From Armatimonadota bacterium (GTDB lineage: Bacteria; Armatimonadota; Fimbriimonadia; Fimbriimonadales; GBS-DC): a DNA stretch of 43,271 bases. The position numbers and the translations under genes were made by a program. The notes below the pieces were generated by a model that was given only the letters and a program-made list of their open reading frames with translations, was not told the origin of the DNA and made no database searches. Where the stretch lies: the NCBI GenBank assembly GCA_037444405.1, contig JBBIML010000022.1:1-43271 (forward strand). The letters run 5' to 3'. This document shows positions 9,456 through 41,252 of the stretch, piece by piece. Every line of letters starts with the position of its first letter. The stretch's first letter is position 1.

Positions 9456-9772
9456 ACCCTATCAACCCGATAGATGTGGAGCAACTGTTGCGCAATCTAC
9501 CAACCCTGCCCGCGCCAGCACACCCCCGTAGCACGGGCATCCTGCCCGTGACCCGCATGGGGGCGAGCGCCGCGCCGAACCCTGCGCTGCTCATCATGCT
9601 GTGGCTGCTGCTACTGCTGCCGACGGCGTGGCTGCTGATGCAGGTTCCGCCCAGCCTGCCCGCTGAAACGGCGTTTCAGGCGACGCCTTATCCCGCATGG
9701 CAGGGGCTGCTACACGACGCGCAACAGGCGCTCCAGACAGGATGGCAACTGATTCAGGAGGTGCTGAGTTGA
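9452..9772 (+). CDS. Small single-pass membrane protein, candidate anti-sigma factor
   Basis: ATGA overlap with the sigma stop codon, EQLLRNLP..PAP N-terminus, one hydrophobic segment. Confidence 0.6.
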   Translation: MNPINPIDVEQLLRNLPTLPAPAHPRSTGILPVTRMGASAAPNPALLIMLWLLLLLPTAWLLMQVPPSLPAETAFQATPYPAWQGLLHDAQQALQTGWQLIQEVLS

Positions 9773-10284
9773 AATCGGATGCCGACTGGATGGGATTGGT
9801 GGTGCTTTACCTGTCGCTGGTGGCGGTCGCGCTGGTGAGCCTGATGCTGCGGGGCGCACGGGCGCAGGCGCACATCCGCGCGATTCGCGAGCAGGGTCGG
9901 ACGCTCTTCTGGCGCGGGTTCGCGGTGACCATCACCGCTGCCCTGCTGATCCTGCTACTGGGCGCACTGAGCGAGAGCCTCAAAAAGGCGGGCGACACCC
10001 GCGCCACCCAGCTGGTCGGGCTGATTGCCGCCGCGATTGTGCTGGCGTATCTGCTGCTCGCGTTGCTGGGCTTCGGCAGTGTGGCGGTGGTGGTGGGCGA
10101 TTCGGCGGCGCAACTGTTCGGCTGGCGCGACCTGAGTGCGGGCTGGTGCAGCGTGCTGGGCTGCGCAATCATCCCACTGGTCGTGTGGATCCCGCTGTTC
10201 GGCTGGGCGCTCGGCGTCTACTGGCTCTCGCTCGCTATCGGCGGGCTGTGGAGCCAATCACAGGTCGCTCCCGATTCCACCTAA
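9769..10284 (+). CDS. Multi-pass membrane protein
   Basis: TTG start overlapping the upstream TGA, RBS AGGAGG, about five hydrophobic helices, WIPLFGW motif. Confidence 0.7.
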   Translation: MKSDADWMGLVVLYLSLVAVALVSLMLRGARAQAHIRAIREQGRTLFWRGFAVTITAALLILLLGALSESLKKAGDTRATQLVGLIAAAIVLAYLLLALLGFGSVAVVVGDSAAQLFGWRDLSAGWCSVLGCAIIPLVVWIPLFGWALGVYWLSLAIGGLWSQSQVAPDST

Positions 10285-12495
10285 CGGCTGACCGAACTGC
10301 CCGTAGCCGAAGCGCGAGATGGACGGCAACGCCTTCAAGCGCACAAATATCAGCAGGCTCCGATCCCGACGGAAGCCGAACGGATTGTCAATATAGCGAA
10401 TCTCCAGCTCGGCGCAGTGCAGGTCATAGGTCAGCAGCAGGTGGCGCCCCTCGAAGCGGTTCAGATAGCCGTTATACTGCAGGATGCTGGAGATTCGGAC
10501 TCGCCCCCACTGCAGGGCGTCTAATCGGGCAAAGATATTGCCCCAGCGATGGCGTTGCGGGTCATAGCGTGCCGAGAGTGCCAGCCGCGAGTCGCCGAAC
10601 TGCCAGAGCAGATCGGTCAGCAGGCTGGTGAACCGCCCGCGATTGGGGTCGTAACTGCTTTGCGTGCGCCAGCGCAGCCACTGCGCCGGGCTATATTCCA
10701 GATTGAGGTTGAGCGGACTCCATGCGTCGCGCCCCTGCTTGCGCGCCAGCAGGTCATAGGTGGTCAGCGCGGCGAGGCTCCAGCCGCCGCCCAGCGCCCA
10801 GCGCAGGTCGGCGCTCAGCAGATTGTAGCTGCCCGTTCGATCCAGTCCGAGCGGCGAATAGCCATGCGGTCGCAGGTAGTTCCAGCGTAGCGCGAGGCTC
10901 GATCGCGCGCCCAGCTCATAACGCCCCTCTAATGCCGACTGCAACAGATATTGCGCCGTCTGGTCGCTATAAAAGGTCTGCCGAAAGCCATAGAGCCAGT
11001 TCAAGCTCCAGCGCGAGACCCCCTCACCCGTATCCTCTCCCCCACTGGGGGAGAGGGTTAGCTTGGCTCCCTCTCCCCGCTGGGGAGAGGGTCGGGGTGA
11101 GGGGTTAAATCTTCCCTGCAGTTCGAAGCCGACGCGCTCGCGGGTGAGCCGTGTCGCGCCCCCTTCGGCAAACCGCCCGACGCTGAGGCGCAGGCTGGCG
11201 TCCAGCCCGTTCAGACCCCACCAGCGTGCGGGCGCGCTCAGGCTCAGCTCTGGCAACCGTTCCAGACCCCCAGAGAAGGCGGGCATATTGCCGATGGGCA
11301 TCAGCCGCTGATACTCCATCTCCAACCGTGCGCCCGACAGGTCATAATCGAGCAACGCGCGGGTGTTCCACTGGCGCAGACCGCCGGTGGAGACGCCCTC
11401 CGACAGGCTCATCGTCTCCAGATAGTCGCCCGATAAGTTCCAGCGCAGCCTCCCCATCGCGCGCGAATCGCTCAGATTCAACGCGCGATTGATACTCTCC
11501 AGCGTGCCGATGAGATTCCGATTCTCGTTGAAGCTCAGGCGGGTCTGACCGCTCGCGCTGGGCAGCATCCAGTCGGTGCGCAGCGACCACGCCGTGCTGT
11601 CGGCAAAAATCAGATAGCTGTTGCGGCGGTAATCAGCGCTCCAGCTGGTCTGCAGTCGCCCGAACGCCTGCTGATGTTGCCACCGCCCCGTGAGGCTGTT
11701 CGTGTTGAGCGTGCGGTCGCGCAGGAAGTAGAGGTTCAGCAAGCCGCGCGAATATTGTTGAAGCAGATTGATGCCCAGCCCCTTACGCTGCATCAGGTCG
11801 AACCGCACGCTACCGATTGCCCCGCGCATCAGCAGGTAGGCAATCGCATATTTGAGGTAGAGTCCCTCCTCTTCCGAGAAGCCCGCTTCGGGCAGAGGCG
11901 ACGATTCGCCCGTTTCACGCAGGGGCACGACCACATAGGGCAGGGTGAACAGGGTGCGTCCCAGCACCTGCAGGCGCACATGGCGCAGCACAGCGCGCTG
12001 ACCCGCCGTCGCCTCCATGCGCTCCGCCTCCCACTGGTAGTGCGGATGCTCGAGATCGCAGGTGGTCGCCTGCAGGTGGCTGCCCTGCACGGTGTTCTCT
12101 TTGCCCTGCAGTTGCCCGCCGCGAATAAAGAGGCTGTCTAACAGGCGATGATTGAGGAAGACAGGCTCCAGCCGTGCGCTGCCGCGCCACAGCTCCCAGT
12201 AGTGTTCGCGCGTGTTCAGCAGCAGTTGCTCGCCCTCGGCGCGGACGCCGTTGCCTGTCAACGACACCCCACCCTGAAACAGATAGTTGCCGGAGCGGGT
12301 GGAGCCTTCGGCGCGGGCGCCCGAGAGCAGGTAGTCGCGCCAGCGGGCTTCGATCCGCTCCGCCTGCAGCGTGCCATCCGCCTGCCAGCGGAAAGCCTCC
12401 ATGCGCAGAATCTCTACCGGCTCCCGCTCCTGCGCCAAGAGGGTTGCGAAAGCGCCCACCAGCCATAGCGCGCCTATCCAGCGAACAATCCCCAT
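10258..12495 (-). CDS. LPS-assembly protein LptD-like outer-membrane protein with an in-frame repeat insertion
   Basis: Signal peptide (MGIVRWIG), OstA-like N-terminus, TTCDLEHPHY, TLFTLPY..PL, PEAGFSEEEGLY, ERLPEL, YDLHCAE. Confidence 0.75.
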   Translation of the reverse strand: MGIVRWIGALWLVGAFATLLAQEREPVEILRMEAFRWQADGTLQAERIEARWRDYLLSGARAEGSTRSGNYLFQGGVSLTGNGVRAEGEQLLLNTREHYWELWRGSARLEPVFLNHRLLDSLFIRGGQLQGKENTVQGSHLQATTCDLEHPHYQWEAERMEATAGQRAVLRHVRLQVLGRTLFTLPYVVVPLRETGESSPLPEAGFSEEEGLYLKYAIAYLLMRGAIGSVRFDLMQRKGLGINLLQQYSRGLLNLYFLRDRTLNTNSLTGRWQHQQAFGRLQTSWSADYRRNSYLIFADSTAWSLRTDWMLPSASGQTRLSFNENRNLIGTLESINRALNLSDSRAMGRLRWNLSGDYLETMSLSEGVSTGGLRQWNTRALLDYDLSGARLEMEYQRLMPIGNMPAFSGGLERLPELSLSAPARWWGLNGLDASLRLSVGRFAEGGATRLTRERVGFELQGRFNPSPRPSPQRGEGAKLTLSPSGGEDTGEGVSRWSLNWLYGFRQTFYSDQTAQYLLQSALEGRYELGARSSLALRWNYLRPHGYSPLGLDRTGSYNLLSADLRWALGGGWSLAALTTYDLLARKQGRDAWSPLNLNLEYSPAQWLRWRTQSSYDPNRGRFTSLLTDLLWQFGDSRLALSARYDPQRHRWGNIFARLDALQWGRVRISSILQYNGYLNRFEGRHLLLTYDLHCAELEIRYIDNPFGFRRDRSLLIFVRLKALPSISRFGYGQFGQPLGGIGSDL
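11018..11105. repeat. Head-to-head doublet of palindromic repeat family A inside the LptD-like CDS
   Basis: CCCCTCACCCGTATCCTCTCCCCCACTGGGGGAGAGGG ... CCCTCTCCCCGCTGGGGAGAGGGTCGGGGTGAGGGG, translated as NPSPRPSPQRGEGAKLTLSPSGGEDTGEGV. Confidence 0.9.
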
Positions 12496-12561
12496 CCGTG
12501 CGCCTATATTGTAGACGCTTGAGCCAACAGAAAAAGGCTCGCTTATGGTACAATCCCCCCG

Positions 12562-13206
12562 ATGGACGCGCTGACGCAGGTGTTCGAGCTCTTTTTGCAT
12601 ATCGATCGCCATCTGGAGAGTGTGGTGCGCCAGTATCATAACACGACCTATGGCATTCTGTTTCTGATCGTCTTTATGGAGACGGGGCTGGTCGTGACGC
12701 CCTTTTTGCCAGGCGATTCGCTGCTGTTTGCGGCGGGCACGCTGGCGGGCAAAGGCATGCTGGACATTCGCACGCTCTATCTCGTGCTGCTGATCGCGCC
12801 CCTGTGCGGCGATAATGTGAACTACTGGATTGGGCGGCTGATCGGGCATCGGCTGGTGCAGAGCCAGCGCGTGCGCCTGATTCGCAAGGAGCATTTAGAT
12901 AAAACGCACGCTTTCTTTGAGAAGTACGGTGGCAAGACGCTGGTGATTGCCCGCTTCGTGCCGATTGTGCGCACGATGGCGCCTTTCGTAGCGGGGCTGG
13001 GCGCGATGACCTACCCCCGATTCCTGATGTTCAGCCTGCTGGGCGCGTTCCTGTGGGTTACCATCTGCACCCTCGCCGGCTACTACTTCGGCAGCATTCC
13101 CCTCATCAAAAACAACTTCTCCATCGCCATTCTGGCGATTATCGCCCTATCGCTGATGCCTGCCATGATTGAGTATCTGCGCCACAGGCGACAGGTGCGT
13201 GTGTAA
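12562..13206 (+). CDS. DedA family membrane protein
   Basis: FMETGLVVTPFLPGDSLLFAAG, FFEKYGGKTLVIARFVPIVRT. Confidence 0.95.
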   Translation: MDALTQVFELFLHIDRHLESVVRQYHNTTYGILFLIVFMETGLVVTPFLPGDSLLFAAGTLAGKGMLDIRTLYLVLLIAPLCGDNVNYWIGRLIGHRLVQSQRVRLIRKEHLDKTHAFFEKYGGKTLVIARFVPIVRTMAPFVAGLGAMTYPRFLMFSLLGAFLWVTICTLAGYYFGSIPLIKNNFSIAILAIIALSLMPAMIEYLRHRRQVRV

Positions 13207-30662: not shown

Positions 30663-30749
30663 CCCTCACCCCCAGCCCCTCTCCCCCAACTCCTCTCTCG
30701 TGCTGTGAGCGATGGGAGTCTAATCCCTCTCCCCAGTGGGGGAGAGGGA
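30663..30749. repeat. Palindromic repeat family A, composite intergenic copy
   Basis: CCCTCACCCCCAGCCCCTCTCCCCC ... TCCCTCTCCCCAGTGGGGGAGAGGGA. Confidence 0.8.
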
Positions 30750-30753
30750 GTTA

Positions 30754-33700
30754 TTAGCCTCTTTCCCCCACCTGGAGCGATTGGAGCGCCGTCAGCACGG
30801 TCAGGAGCGTCTCCAGCGGCTGGGCGGTGAGAGGCAGGCTCATCTTTTCGGGGCGTGTGCGGATAAAGGCAAACTGCCGCTGCAACGCCGTCTGCCAGCG
30901 CGCTTTCAGCCGCCGTTCAGGCTTGAAATCAACTATCAGCCGATTGCCCTCTGCCTGCAGGCTGGCGGCGCCCACCGCATGCGCCAGAATGCGCACCTCC
31001 ATAATGCGCAACAGGTTGCGCACGGTCGGCGGCAACTGCCCGTAGCGGTCGCGCAGCTCGCGCACGAGGTCTTTCAGCTCCTCGCGTGTGCGGCTGCCCG
31101 CGATGCGCTTGTAGTAGCCCAGCCGTTGCGCCACATCGGGGATGTAATCGGCAGGGATGTAGGCGTCTACCGGCAGCTGGGCGGGCGGCAGCTCCTCCTG
31201 CAGGGGCGCATCCAGCGACCAGTGCGTCTCCCCGTTGCGCAGGTGGCGGATGGCGTCGCGCAACATCGCCTGATAGAGTTCGAAGCCGACCATGCGCATC
31301 GCGCCATGCTGTTCCTCGCCCAGCAGGTTGCCCGCGCCGCGGATTTCGAGATCGCGCATCGCCAGTGCGAAGCCCGAACCCAGATGGGAGAACTCCCTGA
31401 GCGCCTGCAGACGCTCTTCTGCCTTCTCGCTGAGCTTGCCCGCTTTGAACAGGAAGTAGGCGTACGCCTGGCGGTCACTGCGCCCGACGCGCCCGCGCAA
31501 CTGATAGAGCTGCGCCAGCCCGAACCGCTCCGCGCCCTCCACAATCAGCGTGTTCACATTTGGCATGTCCAGCCCGTTCTCGACAATCGTCGTGCTGACC
31601 AGCACATCGTAGCGGTGCCGATAGAAGTCCAGCACCGTCGCCTCCATTCGGGCGGCAGGCATCTGCCCGTGCGCGACTGCGATTCGGGCGCCGGGCACCA
31701 GCCGCTGGAGCCGCTCCGCCACATGCTGGATGCCCTGCACGCGCGGCACCACATAGAACACCTGCCCGTCGCGCTGGAGTTCACGCAGAATCGCTTCGCG
31801 CACCGTCCACTCCGTGTAGGGCAGAACATAGGTGCGGATAGGGAGCCGCCCCGGCGGCGGGTCGGTGATGAGGCTCATATCGCGGATCTCGGTGAGCGCC
31901 ATATAGAGCGTGCGCGGGATGGGCGTCGCGCTCATCGTCAGCACATCGACCGCGCCGCGCAACTGCTTGAACCGCTCCTTCTGCATCACGCCGAACCGCT
32001 GCTCCTCATCGATAATCACCAGCCCCAGATTGTGAAACTGCACATCTTTAGAGAGCAGGCGGTGCGTGCCGATGACCATATCGATGGCGCCCGTCTTCAG
32101 CCCGTGCAGGATGCGCCGCTGCTCGGCAGGCGTGATGAGCCGGCTCAACAGCGCGACCTGGATGCCGAACGGTTCGAACCGCTCGGTGAAGGTCTGCCAG
32201 TGTTGATACGCCAGCACGGTGGTGGGGCACAGCAGGGCGACCTGTCGACCCGACATGATGGCTTTGAAGGCGGCTCGCAGGGCGACCTCCGTCTTGCCGA
32301 AGCCCACATCGCCCACCAGCAGCCGATCCATCGGATGGGGCGATTCCAGATCGCGCTTGACCTCCTGAATCGCCTGCATCTGGCTGGGCGTTTCGAGGTA
32401 AGGGAAGCCCGCCTCCATCTCCTGTTGCCAAGGTGTGTCGGGGTCGCAGGGCGGGCGGGTCGCCTTCTCGCGCAGGGCATAGAGGCGCACCAGCTCCTGC
32501 GCCACCTCCTTCGCCCTGCGGCGTGCCTGCGCCACGCGGCGTGTCCACAGCGCACTGTTGAGCCGATGGATTTCGGGCGGCTTATCATCGGGCGCAATAT
32601 ATTTCTGAATGCGGTCTAACTGGTCTGTCGGCACATAGATGCGGTCGGGGTGCGCGTACTCAATCAGCAGGTAATCGCGCTTGACCCCATCGCGCTCCAG
32701 CGTGGTCAGTCCGCGAAAGATGCCGATGCCGTGATAGAGATGCACCACATAGTCGCCGGGCTGGAGGTCCATAATGGAGGTGATGGGCACGCCCTCGTTA
32801 AATCGGCGGGGCGGCAGGCGCAGGCGATTGCGCTCGAACAGCTCCGCGTCGGTGATGAGCGCGAACCGCTGGCTGTCCCACACGAAACCACCGCCCAGAT
32901 TGCCCCGCCAGAGCAGCAGCGGGCGCGACGCCCCATCGGTTTGGACTGCGGAAGCGGGGCTTCCGCACTCCATATCGGTGTCCATGAAGGGCAGCTCCGC
33001 CTGGCGCAGGGCGTGCTTCACCTGATTGGGGCGGTCGGTCGCGATAACAATCTGGTAGCCTGCCTCGTGCCAGCGGCGCAGGCTGTTCCACAGGTCAGGT
33101 AGCCGCCCGCGCGTCGTCTCCAGCGAGCGCGTGCCAATCGGGATACCGCCCTCGCTGGTCAGCACCAGCGTGCGCGCATGCAAATCAAGCTTCTGAATCG
33201 GCTCCAGATAGGCGTCCGCCTGGAGCGGGATAATATCGCCGCGCGATGCACGCGACGCCAACGCTTGCTGAAGGTCGTCCATCAGCCGCTCATATGCCAT
33301 CTGCAGGCGGAGCGGCTCCTCCAGAATCAGCACCGCATCGGCGGGCAGGTAGTCCAGCAGGCAGGCGCGCTCCACCACCAGCCACGGCAGATAGAGTTCC
33401 AGCCGGTCAAACGGCGCGCCCTGCGACAGGGGATGCAGGTCCGCCTCCAGATTTTCGCGCAGAGCGGGTTGCAGAGCCTTCGGCTGGAGCGCGATCCGGG
33501 CTTCCCATTCGGCGCGGATGCGTTCGGCAAGCTCCGGATTGCCCATCGGCACCTCGCGGGCGGGCGGGATGCGCACCACGCGCAGGCTGGCGACCGATCG
33601 CTGCGTGGCGGGGTCAAAACGGCGGATGCTAACAATCTCATCGCCGAAGAACTCGATGCGCACAGGTGCATTCGCACCCATCGGGAACACATCCACAATC

Positions 33701-34308
33701 CCGCCCCGCCGCGCGAACTGACCTGGCAACCGCACTGGCTCCTGATGCTCATAACCGCTCACCATCAGCTGCTGGATGAGCGCGTCAGGGGAAATGTAGG
33801 GCTGGGGCGTCCCGCCTCGCAATGCCCCCTCACCCGCACCCTCTCCCCCAAAAGGGGAGAGGGGTTCGGATGCTCCCTCGCCATCCTCAACAGCGGCGAG
33901 GGCTAACAGCAATCGTTCAAACATCGCGGGGGGCATCGTGCGTTGCAGGGCGGCAGCAAGCGGAGCAATCACGATGACCGATTCGCCCCGATAGAGCGCC
34001 CGCAGCGCGCGCACTCGCTCATGCAGAACCTCCAGCTCCACACCTGTCGGCTCCATCACGGGCGTCAAACCTGATGGCACACGCATCAGGCGCGATTCGG
34101 GGACGCCGAGCCGCAGCAGGATCGCCAGCCACTGCTCGGCGCGCTCCAGCGAGGGGGTCAGAATCAGCACAGGGGCTTGCTGGTCAGCCATCAGCGCTGT
34201 TGTCAGCACAGGCGCCGACTCCGAACACACCTCGCGCCACACCAGCGGACGACCCCCATCCCACTCAGGCAATCCACCCCGCAACGCCTGTAGCCAGACG
34301 GGCAACAT
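30754..34308 (-). CDS. mfd: Transcription-repair coupling factor Mfd with two in-frame repeat insertions
   Basis: [85 protein letters not shown]-terminus. Confidence 0.97.
32942..32972. repeat. Palindrome family C inside mfd
   Basis: TGGACTGCGGAAGC-GGG-GCTTCCGCACTCCA, translated as [11 protein letters not shown]. Confidence 0.7.
33796..33902. repeat. Composite family A + GTAG-type repeat inside mfd
   Basis: GTAGGGCTGGGGCGTCCCGCCTCGC, CCCCCTCACCCGCACCCTCTCCCCCAAAAGGGGAGAGGGG and CCCTCGCC..GGCGAGGG, translated as [36 protein letters not shown]. Confidence 0.85.
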
Positions 34309-34471
34309 GCAACTATAGAGTGTACCTGAGCGGCTTGAGTGTCCCGACCAGGCAAGCAGGGGCGAGACGCACCTGCCACGATAGCCGACGCAGGTCAACT
34401 GACCCTTCAGTCGATTCCGGGCAGGAGAAGCGAGCGGGTGAGCGAATCATGAGCAACGGAGGTGAGCAACG

Positions 34472-35011: not shown

Positions 35012-35147
35012 GAGGGCTGTTCGAAAATTTGGGGCATAATATCGACCTGAGTGAAGCCCCCTCACCCCAACCCTCTCCCCTGCAGGCGGGGGAGAGGGTA
35101 CGGGTGAGGGGCAGCCTTGCCTCTGGTTGGATTTTTCGAACACCCTC
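35012..35147. mobile_element. MITE of about 136 bp with terminal inverted repeats, 8-9 bp target-site duplication and internal family A palindrome
   Basis: Left end GAGGGCTGTTCGAAAATT; right end reverse complement GAGGGTGTTCGAAAAAT. Flanking direct repeat AGGGGTCG at 35004-35011 and 35148-35155. Internal hairpin at 35057-35111. Confidence 0.8.
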
Positions 35148-41227: not shown

Positions 41228-41252
41228 CCCTCTCCCACCGCGTGGGAGAGGG
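41228..41252. repeat. Palindromic repeat family A downstream of tRNA-Lys
   Basis: CCCTCTCCCAC-CGC-GTGGGAGAGGG, nearly identical to 2883-2909; a degenerate partner lies at 41174-41216. Confidence 0.8.

Follow-up and report, generated by a model that had tools for sequence, protein, structure and literature searches.

The 43,271-nt stretch of DNA analyzed here (hereafter the window; contig JBBIML010000022.1 of GenBank assembly GCA_037444405.1, from an Armatimonadota bacterium) carries, inside an lptD-like gene, an inverted doublet of two palindromic repeat units that leaves the open reading frame (ORF) unbroken. The doublet was first noticed in an earlier note made from the sequence alone; an inverted-repeat search and translation of the ORF bear that observation out, and the peptide which the note had assigned to the element, NPSPRPSPQRGEGAKLTLSPSGGEDTGEGV, was recovered identically from the minus strand at 11106..11017. 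We find that the repeat belongs to the BoxC/PIT/TMECO family, and that other copies lie in frame in conserved genes of the same genome. The features at the locus are as follows.

10258 to 12495, minus strand: lptD-like gene of 745 codons, with a signal-peptide-like start (MGIVRW...) and third-position G+C highest in this frame.
11017 to 11106, minus strand: the 30 codons of the peptide from the earlier note, about 28 of them repeat-encoded.
11020 to 11104, no strand: doublet of two BoxC/TMECO units, inverted, tails outward, in frame in the lptD-like gene.
11021 to 11057, minus strand: unit 1, in the order hairpin, TAC, GGGTGAGGG, with a mismatch in one stem block (GGGAGAGGA); it codes for ..LTLSPSGGEDTGEG...
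11058 to 11068, no strand: spacer between the units, 11 nt, two positions of which are unlike the copy in the sister species G002.
11069 to 11103, plus strand: unit 2, CCCTCTCCC-N5-GGGAGAGGG-N3-GGGTGAGGG; the coding strand gives ..PSPRPSPQRGEG...

The doublet is a G+C-rich element of 85 nt, with units of 35-37 nt. Its arms (11020-11053 and 11071-11104, 34 nt each) are 79% complementary, and each contributes one perfect small hairpin (11034-11044/11046-11056 and 11069-11078/11082-11091). The ORF stays open throughout, and the doublet-encoded stretch amounts to ~28 residues rich in Pro, Ser, Gly and Glu. As RNA, the stretch is predicted to fold into a long hairpin (-73.2 kcal/mol, z -5.6), which the ribosome must open; the predicted DNA fold has an energy of -34.2 kcal/mol (z -4.7). 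An Rfam search of 10700-11400 returned only look-alikes of microRNA precursors, all sub-threshold at 29 bits or less against gathering scores of 68-95.

By both consensus and similarity, the repeat is a member of BoxC/PIT/TMECO. PIT stands for potential intrastrand triplex, and the family is known from E. coli and other Proteobacteria. Holder et al. 2015 (PMC4666352) give the consensus 5'-CCCTCNCCC N3-6 GGGNGAGGG N3 GGGNGAGGG-3', and describe five inverted pairs in Escherichia coli MG1655 made of a type A and a type B unit. The unit at 11069-11103 fits this consensus exactly, with N5 and N3, and the minus-strand unit at 11021-11057 fits it save for one block mismatch, with 7 nt between the fixed blocks. 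A BLAST search with the 90-nt doublet hit 4604 of 5426 E. coli genomes. The best E. coli unit is 94.7% identical over 38 nt (query positions 50-87), and the matches listed lie under no annotated feature; six E. coli genomes match 94% of the doublet at 77.3% identity, and in one strain a doublet built in the same way lies in the wcaA-wzc spacer. Given the fit to a published consensus and this similarity to intergenic E. coli copies, the suggestion in the earlier note of an independent, undescribed family does not hold. A literature search of incomplete coverage, supplements excluded, found no report of in-frame BoxC/TMECO copies or of the family in Armatimonadota, and the words ‘intragenic’ and ‘within genes’ are absent from Holder et al. 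2015 (PMC4666352).

Four DNA runs from one subsurface-metagenome study contain the stretch. In run X1, possibly the source sample, a contig spans 10700-11500 with no differences over all 801 nt; in run X2, a second sample of the same study, a contig covers 10700-11113, again with no differences. In the runs examined, no contig joined across the site without the element. An insert of this kind could be an artefact, either of a repeat-induced wrong join of reads or of a gene already dead, and it is true that low-coverage short-read contigs (runs X2-X4) stop at the repeat and that contigs from other repeat copies pile up on 11019-11104. However, the junction is reproduced by the second X1 assembly and by the X2 contig, and an independent genome, that of the sister species, has an insert at the same codon of a full-length ORF. 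Misassembly is unlikely because these contigs agree and the second genome carries the insert independently. The gene itself is open for 745 codons, and its third positions are the most diverged. We regard an artefact as extremely improbable.

The host protein is LptD-like by fold. As listed, its ORF is 878 codons long and reaches 12894; the extra 133 upstream codons (12496-12894) lose the codon-position signal and overlap a plus-strand ORF at 12562-13206. By eye, this plus-strand ORF resembles a DedA-family membrane protein, and our crude gene caller dropped this neighbor of the lptD-like gene on overlap. The protein has 49 homologues in the protein collection, from Armatimonadota/Fimbriimonadales bins and named at most ‘LPS-assembly protein’ or ‘hypothetical’, and the gene is matched in 40 of 41 related genomes. 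A whole-protein Pfam scan gave no family at E<=0.1; the Pfam LptD profile (PF04453) has this gene as its sole match in the genome, at 15.6 bits, below the 22.4 cut-off. A profile of the alignment compared with the sequences of solved structures gave chance-level Kelch matches only, at E 0.008 or weaker. An AlphaFold model built on a 19-sequence alignment (mean predicted local distance difference test score, pLDDT, 75.6; predicted template modeling score, pTM, 0.47) has an N-terminal beta-sandwich (27-191) and a large barrel (228-720), with 28 strand segments by DSSP. The top-ranked Foldseek matches to this model are nearly all LptD chains, with E-values down to 1.6e-19 and template modeling (TM) scores of only 0.34-0.36. 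VIA-align likewise places LptD first (Z 17-22, 520-560 residues aligned over 25-719), with MtrB and TonB-dependent receptors behind at Z of about 16. Compared with LptD itself, the translocon that delivers lipopolysaccharide to the outer membrane (PDB 8h1r, 9kn3, 5iv9, 4q35 and others), the likeness lies in the predicted beta-sandwich plus very large barrel over nearly the full length; the arrangement of LptD, a periplasmic beta-jellyroll and a 26-strand barrel, is found in the model, though 28 DSSP segments were counted. The difference lies in the sequence, which is about 10% identical, never exceeds the Pfam cut-offs for LptD/OstA and matches no solved chain. An LptD-like assignment is thus supported by the predicted fold and not at the sequence level.

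In the model, insert residues 467-493 have a pLDDT below 50 and join strand 450-463 to strand 497-508, in keeping with the proposal in the earlier note that the element lies between two beta-strand-like segments. This connection comes after the 14th of the 28 strand segments, and the other connections after even-numbered strands are mostly 2-4 residues long. Since short connections after even strands are the pattern of periplasmic turns, strand order and parity, taken without coordinates, suggest that the insert loop leans to the periplasmic side.

We compared this genome (G000) with the sister species G002 and with G001 and G003, which belong to the same genus and are about 76% identical. The repeat-type peptide is present in two of the 49 homologues, those of G000 and G002. 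The G002 protein is 89% identical to that of G000 overall, and 92-94% identical in two pieces in a separate genome search; it is the only orthologue carrying the peptide, and its DNA has palindromic doublets as well. The inter-strand segment, measured by a regular expression between the conserved ..QG and ..RQTFYSD, could be sized in 38 homologues, with the following lengths.

19-21 residues: 24 of 38 homologues.
28-40 residues: 11 of 38 homologues.
42 residues: this protein (G000).
59 residues: P0012, whose insert is unrelated.
79 residues: G002.

The earlier note had foreseen a clean indel of about 30 residues in an alignment of orthologues. This is roughly right: 47 of the 49 homologues lack the repeat, but the site itself varies in length, and the lptD-like gene thus marks an inter-strand site that tolerates 19 to 79 residues. 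In P0012 (alignment A1, columns about 541-640), a different insert of ~40 residues (..MVNGRDAQATLGTGETPKPQ..) occupies the same inter-strand connection, and the N-terminal region of that protein also has a ..GQDARATE.. stretch. These observations suggest that repeats land repeatedly at the inter-strand site of the lptD-like gene.

At the DNA level, the G000 site reads ..TTTAAC, the doublet, then GGTCTCG... In G002, there is first a doublet with other spacer and loops, then 28 nt, then a doublet matching that of G000; the G002 insert is 111 nt longer than that of G000, a length once more divisible by three. In G001 and G003, the sequence at the site is unrelated. Because G000 and G002 have the insert while G001 and G003 lack it, the insert dates from the ancestor of G000 and G002, since which the array at this site has been resized. 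The extra G002 doublet is not a fresh tandem copy of its neighbor, because its loops and spacer differ.

The substitution pattern in the lptD-like gene looks like that of a selected, intact gene: between G000 and G002, codon positions 1, 2 and 3 diverge by 4.2, 2.9 and 8.2%. Pooled over the four genes compared between these two genomes, the divergence was distributed as follows.

Codon position 1: 79/3459, 2.3%.
Codon position 2: 55/3456, 1.6%.
Codon position 3: 254/3462, 7.3%.
9-nt repeat blocks: 13/324, 4.0%.
Loops, linkers and spacers: 31/222, 14%.

Relative to third positions, the blocks diverge less (Fisher p 0.023) and the loops and spacers more (p 0.001). This fits a constraint or a homogenizing process acting on the DNA blocks, and none acting on the peptide as such.

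The lptD-like gene is one host among many. The G000 genome comprises 2.68 Mb in 40 contigs, with 62.5% G+C and 98.9% completeness. In it, we counted strict units, those matching all three blocks with no more than one mismatch in each, and found 140, or 145 looser clusters. Genes were called with our own crude caller (codon-usage log-odds, longest ORFs), which gave 2084 genes covering 88% of the genome. The strict units fell into the following places.

Between ORFs: 76.
Overlapping an ORF end: 7.
Inside an ORF: 57.
Inside an ORF, with a coding score above 20 on both sides: 34, in 22 genes.

The repeats are about 4.5-fold enriched in the 12% of the genome that is non-coding, and a quarter are still read through. 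The inference in the earlier note of a repeat that adds peptides to conserved proteins is supported genome-wide, with coding signal on both sides of 34 of the 140 units. All 21 other host ORFs match Pfam families; they are listed here by gene product.

Two Mur ligases, LpxK, Lnt and an O-antigen-ligase-like protein.
UvrD, Mfd, MutL, LigA and SMC (three units).
2-oxoacid dehydrogenase E2 protein, GlnE and CarB.
Histidine kinase, M16 peptidase (four units) and GH20 glycosidase.
GHMP kinase, biotin/lipoate ligase family protein, TPR protein, DUF5693 protein and YfhO-like protein.

Some inserts lie between Pfam domains (the E2 linker, the MutL linker, and LigA ahead of its BRCT domain), and others lie within a domain match (UvrD, GlnE and LpxK). 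The inserts in Mfd, the M16 peptidase and UvrD are common to G000 and G002 and absent from G001, G003 and G012 where the site is covered; these arrays are mostly longer in G002, including that at the Mfd site. In G002, the peptide of the LptD-like loop matches 24 other places, 13 of them in open frames of at least 300 residues. The frames used are biased: 17 of the 34 in-gene units read ..LSPxGGEGxGEG.. and 7 read ..PSPxPSP..GEG, and the frame GGG TGA GGG is excluded because of its stop codon.

At least 29 of the 145 clusters have two or more hairpins, often one ‘GTA-linker’ unit and one ‘CCCTGCC-linker’ unit. Many units also have a further conserved flank, either ..CTGAGTGAAGCC before the tail or its complement after it, and others have ..GGCATC after the tail (examples of the extra flank are at contig C22:35047-35058, C7:174904-174915 and C6:202448-202459). 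The mobile unit may thus be longer than the published 37-nt motif, with subfamilies.

Within the window, the CCCTCTCCC-N2-12-GGGAGAGGG hairpin pattern occurs six times, against none in each of 100 shuffles, and the 9-mer CCCTCWCCC occurs 22 times against 0.59 expected. The copies outside the lptD-like gene are as follows.

2870 to 2908, no strand: single unit between ORFs, beginning 3 nt past the end of the upstream ORF.
30663 to 30748, no strand: decayed doublet between ORFs; the first unit lacks its 3' arm, and the hairpin at 30725-30748 is intact.
33827 to 33902, minus strand: second in-frame copy, one unit plus a degenerate hairpin coding for 21 residues, in the Mfd (TRCF) gene at 30754..34398.
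35059 to 35110, no strand: unit with tails at both sides, between ORFs.
41228 to 41252, no strand: bare hairpin between ORFs.

The earlier note had listed the copies at 2870, 30663, 35057 and 41228 as intergenic, and by our crude codon-usage gene calls they do lie between ORFs; it had overlooked the in-frame copy at 33827-33902. This copy lies in the N-terminal part of Mfd, with a positive coding score on either flank, and its ORF (30754..34398, minus strand) matches the Pfam families TRCF, DEAD and UvrB_inter. A second short repeat family, GGGCAGGATGCCC-NN-GCTAC, which forms a small hairpin, is also present, at 9528-9547 of the window (minus strand) and at about 3440-3460 of contig C12 (locus L024). 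It has 22 genome copies within two mismatches of the copy in the M16 peptidase gene, which is in frame as ..GQDARAT.. and absent from G001, G003 and G012.

We propose that a non-autonomous BoxC/PIT/TMECO doublet entered the lptD-like gene in the ancestor of G000 and G002 and survives as a tolerated in-frame passenger, a reading to which we give a probability of roughly 85%. It is based on the family identity, the in-frame position, the orthologue distribution, the genome-wide pattern and the intact host gene, all of which are observed. Two hairpin-plus-tail units in inverted orientation would have entered the segment coding for a length-variable connection between barrel strands, after the split from G001 and G003. 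The element would survive because it is in effect a multiple of three, has no stop in the frame used, and encodes a flexible peptide at a place tolerant of length. The insert would then be a passenger rather than a designed loop, and the loop itself would be functionally neutral. The same process would have operated at about 20 other conserved genes of G000. How the element entered is a guess; a hairpin-directed nuclease or recombination process could have been responsible, its gene now gone from the genome, and sites already occupied would afterwards have gained and lost units.

Several points weigh against this proposal. The insert is presumably translated, given its open frame, and the four runs listed are all of DNA. 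The census depends on a crude longest-ORF codon-usage caller and, within genes, covers in-frame copies; of the 57 units scored inside ORFs, 23 may in fact be extragenic, since they lie close to an ORF end or score weakly on a flank. Where several copies form an array, non-orthologous units may have been paired in the alignment of G000 with G002, and the divergence of loops and spacers would then be overestimated. No empty site was found in a very close relative, and the insertion may have involved a target duplication or the replacement of ancestral loop residues. Finally, no mobilizer was identified in G000 among the Y1 transposases, DUF559 genes and between-unit cargo searched.

The loop could instead be adaptive, a flexible and variable part of LptD kept as useful, for example by altering the surface seen by phages or antimicrobial peptides, with the length of the array selected. 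The range of 19 to 79 residues across the family and the unrelated insert of P0012 at the same place are what such selection might produce, the entry titles of solved structures show phage receptor-binding proteins on LptD, and the frames are biased, half of the in-gene units giving the same ..LSPxGGEGxGEG.. reading. However, the same peptide is found in cytoplasmic enzymes (CarB, LigA, UvrD, Mfd and the Mur ligases), so nothing about it is specific to LptD; loops and spacers outpace third codon positions, which looks like an absence of protein constraint; and the parity of the strands in the model points to the periplasm rather than the cell surface. On balance, an adaptive loop is improbable, and the tolerated passenger is the reading we carry forward.

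We also considered what might have spread the repeat. Across 41 genomes of the order, counts of the exact hairpin are patchy.

G002: 309 hairpins.
G023: 160 hairpins.
G020: 137 hairpins.
G012: 124 hairpins.
G024: 102 hairpins.
G000: 99 hairpins.
G029: 93 hairpins.
G034: 69 hairpins.
G017: 65 hairpins.
G003: 27 hairpins.
G001: 19 hairpins.
Many other genomes: 0-5 hairpins.

Among the 13 unit pairs lying 150-3000 nt apart in G000, no recurrent cargo gene was found between the units. Two inverted imperfect palindromes resemble a REPIN, a repetitive extragenic palindromic (REP) doublet, which would be mobilized by a REP-associated Y1 tyrosine transposase (RAYT) of the IS200/IS605 type. Intragenic REP dimers coding for 20-30 residues have been described (PMC3733652), and the genome has one Y1_Tnp gene, at C8:179059-179838. 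However, there is no repeat within 1.5 kb of this gene, and none of the six Y1 loci in G000 and its relatives has the hairpin; the Y1 gene is present in about one copy in 36 of the 41 genomes whatever the number of repeats (0 to 309); and, read from the sequence, the units of the doublet end in neither the GTAG nor the CGTC tetranucleotide that would tag them. With Y1 loci unflanked by repeats, no tag, and Y1 presence independent of repeat number, we rejected mobilization by RAYT, the likelihood of which we consider very slight. The product of the Y1 gene itself (minus strand, locus L021) has the only Y1 domain of the genome, joined to a C-terminal extension similar by eye to sigma-70 region 4. 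Similar Y1 genes occur in most relatives as open frames of about 250-330 residues, in about one copy and unflanked by repeats.

A second candidate concerns only how the repeats spread. The doublets may be leftovers of a small selfish element in which the repeats flank a gene for a DUF559 (Vsr-like PD-(D/E)XK) endonuclease; the nuclease would spread both itself and the repeats into genes in frame, and would since have been lost here, the non-autonomous repeats being kept. Of the 25 DUF559 loci examined in relatives, 10 lie within about 300 nt of a CCCTCNCC..GGNGAGGG hairpin (5/8 plus 5/17), as opposed to none of the six Y1-transposase loci. The association holds even where hairpins are few: of the three in G026 and the 13 in G018, two in each genome flank the DUF559 gene, and one of the five in G027 lies about 70 nt from a DUF559 gene. 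The DUF559 domain also occurs in frame beside repeats, in a MurD-like ORF (L056, G018), a YbeY-like ORF (L058, G023) and a methyltransferase-like ORF of 1107 residues (L059, G001). Adjoining the last of these is a fourfold tandem ..HQHPHPPTPLLQ.. repeat.

There is also evidence on the other side. DUF559 has no match in G000, despite its completeness, or in G002, which has the most hairpins; indeed, six of the nine genomes with at least 65 hairpins lack a match (G000, G002, G012, G017, G020 and G024). Conversely, 15 of the 25 loci have no nearby hairpin, and G028 has four matches and no hairpins. Unit numbers differ between G000 and G002 with neither showing the gene, so DUF559 could account for these differences only if its loss was very recent or the gene is in DNA missing from the assembly. 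A control search in repeat-bearing E. coli gave no DUF559 match, the literature search described above, with its incomplete coverage and its exclusion of supplements, returned no report of a link between DUF559 and the repeat, and we know of no biochemical one. A subset of DUF559 genes does travel with these repeats, and this is a real lead; it is tentatively the best one on what spreads them, and descent of the doublets from such an element is possible though doubtful. A bolder version, less likely again, is that BoxC/TMECO repeats are the non-autonomous ends of a DUF559-nuclease selfish element that colonizes genes in frame; the nuclease would be lost while the translated loops stay, grow and shrink, the LptD-like loop being one such scar. 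If true, this would continually supply some lineages with new peptide segments for essential proteins, and would account for BoxC/TMECO, unexplained in E. coli for some thirty years.

Whatever its means of spread, the BoxC/PIT/TMECO doublet in the lptD-like gene shows that a family described in E. coli as strictly intergenic is able, in another phylum, to reside within essential genes, among them genes for building the envelope, repairing DNA and making nucleotides. Pro/Gly-rich inserts that look odd in conserved proteins would then not be annotation errors. The finding bears on how proteins acquire loops and on what spreads BoxC/TMECO repeats, for which the partial link to DUF559 in relatives provides a testable candidate.

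The closest parallel in habit is with the Rickettsia palindromic elements (RPEs), which are presumably a different sequence family from this repeat. RPEs insert in frame without inactivating the host gene (Ogata et al. 2000, as cited in PMC3733652 and PMC3184786); they add short peptides and, like the repeat here, also occur between genes. The earlier note had proposed a coding palindrome of this kind, and the repeat does behave as one, being intergenic as well as in frame in intact, conserved genes whose distant orthologues lack the insert. RPEs are about 105-146 bp (table in PMC3184786) and belong to an obligate intracellular alphaproteobacterium, whereas the doublet here is 85 nt and G000 is a free-living-type genome from a subsurface metagenome. 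The comparison with Rickettsia drawn in the earlier note is sound, except that Rickettsia is not alone in this habit: Di Nocera et al. 2013 (PMC3733652) describe GTAG/CGTC-tagged REP dimers inside ORFs, adding 20-30 residues, often in repair or replication genes such as UvrD, and Delihas 2011 (PMC3184786) reviews further cases. The likeness to the intragenic REPs extends to the hosts, which here include UvrD, Mfd, MutL, LigA and SMC; the difference is that those REPs are tagged and RAYT-linked (PMC3733652), while the unit here lacks the tag and the Y1 gene is unflanked.

With BoxC/PIT/TMECO itself, the doublet shares the unit (a pyrimidine block, short loop, purine block, 3-nt linker and second purine block) and the inverted pairing of two unit types, with variable loops, conserved blocks and no adjoining mobility gene. 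In Holder et al. 2015 (PMC4666352), the family is reported as 3610 copies across 262 proteobacterial genomes with no mobility genes nearby, and the 23 copies of MG1655 are ‘always located intergenically’. Here, the host belongs to the Armatimonadota, exact hairpins number 99 in G000 and 309 in its sister as against those 23 copies, and at least 34 of 140 units are in frame in conserved genes. The intragenic placement is a different habit and not a different sequence family: this is a known repeat family that, in an LptD-like gene of another phylum, behaves as other palindromic repeats are known to.

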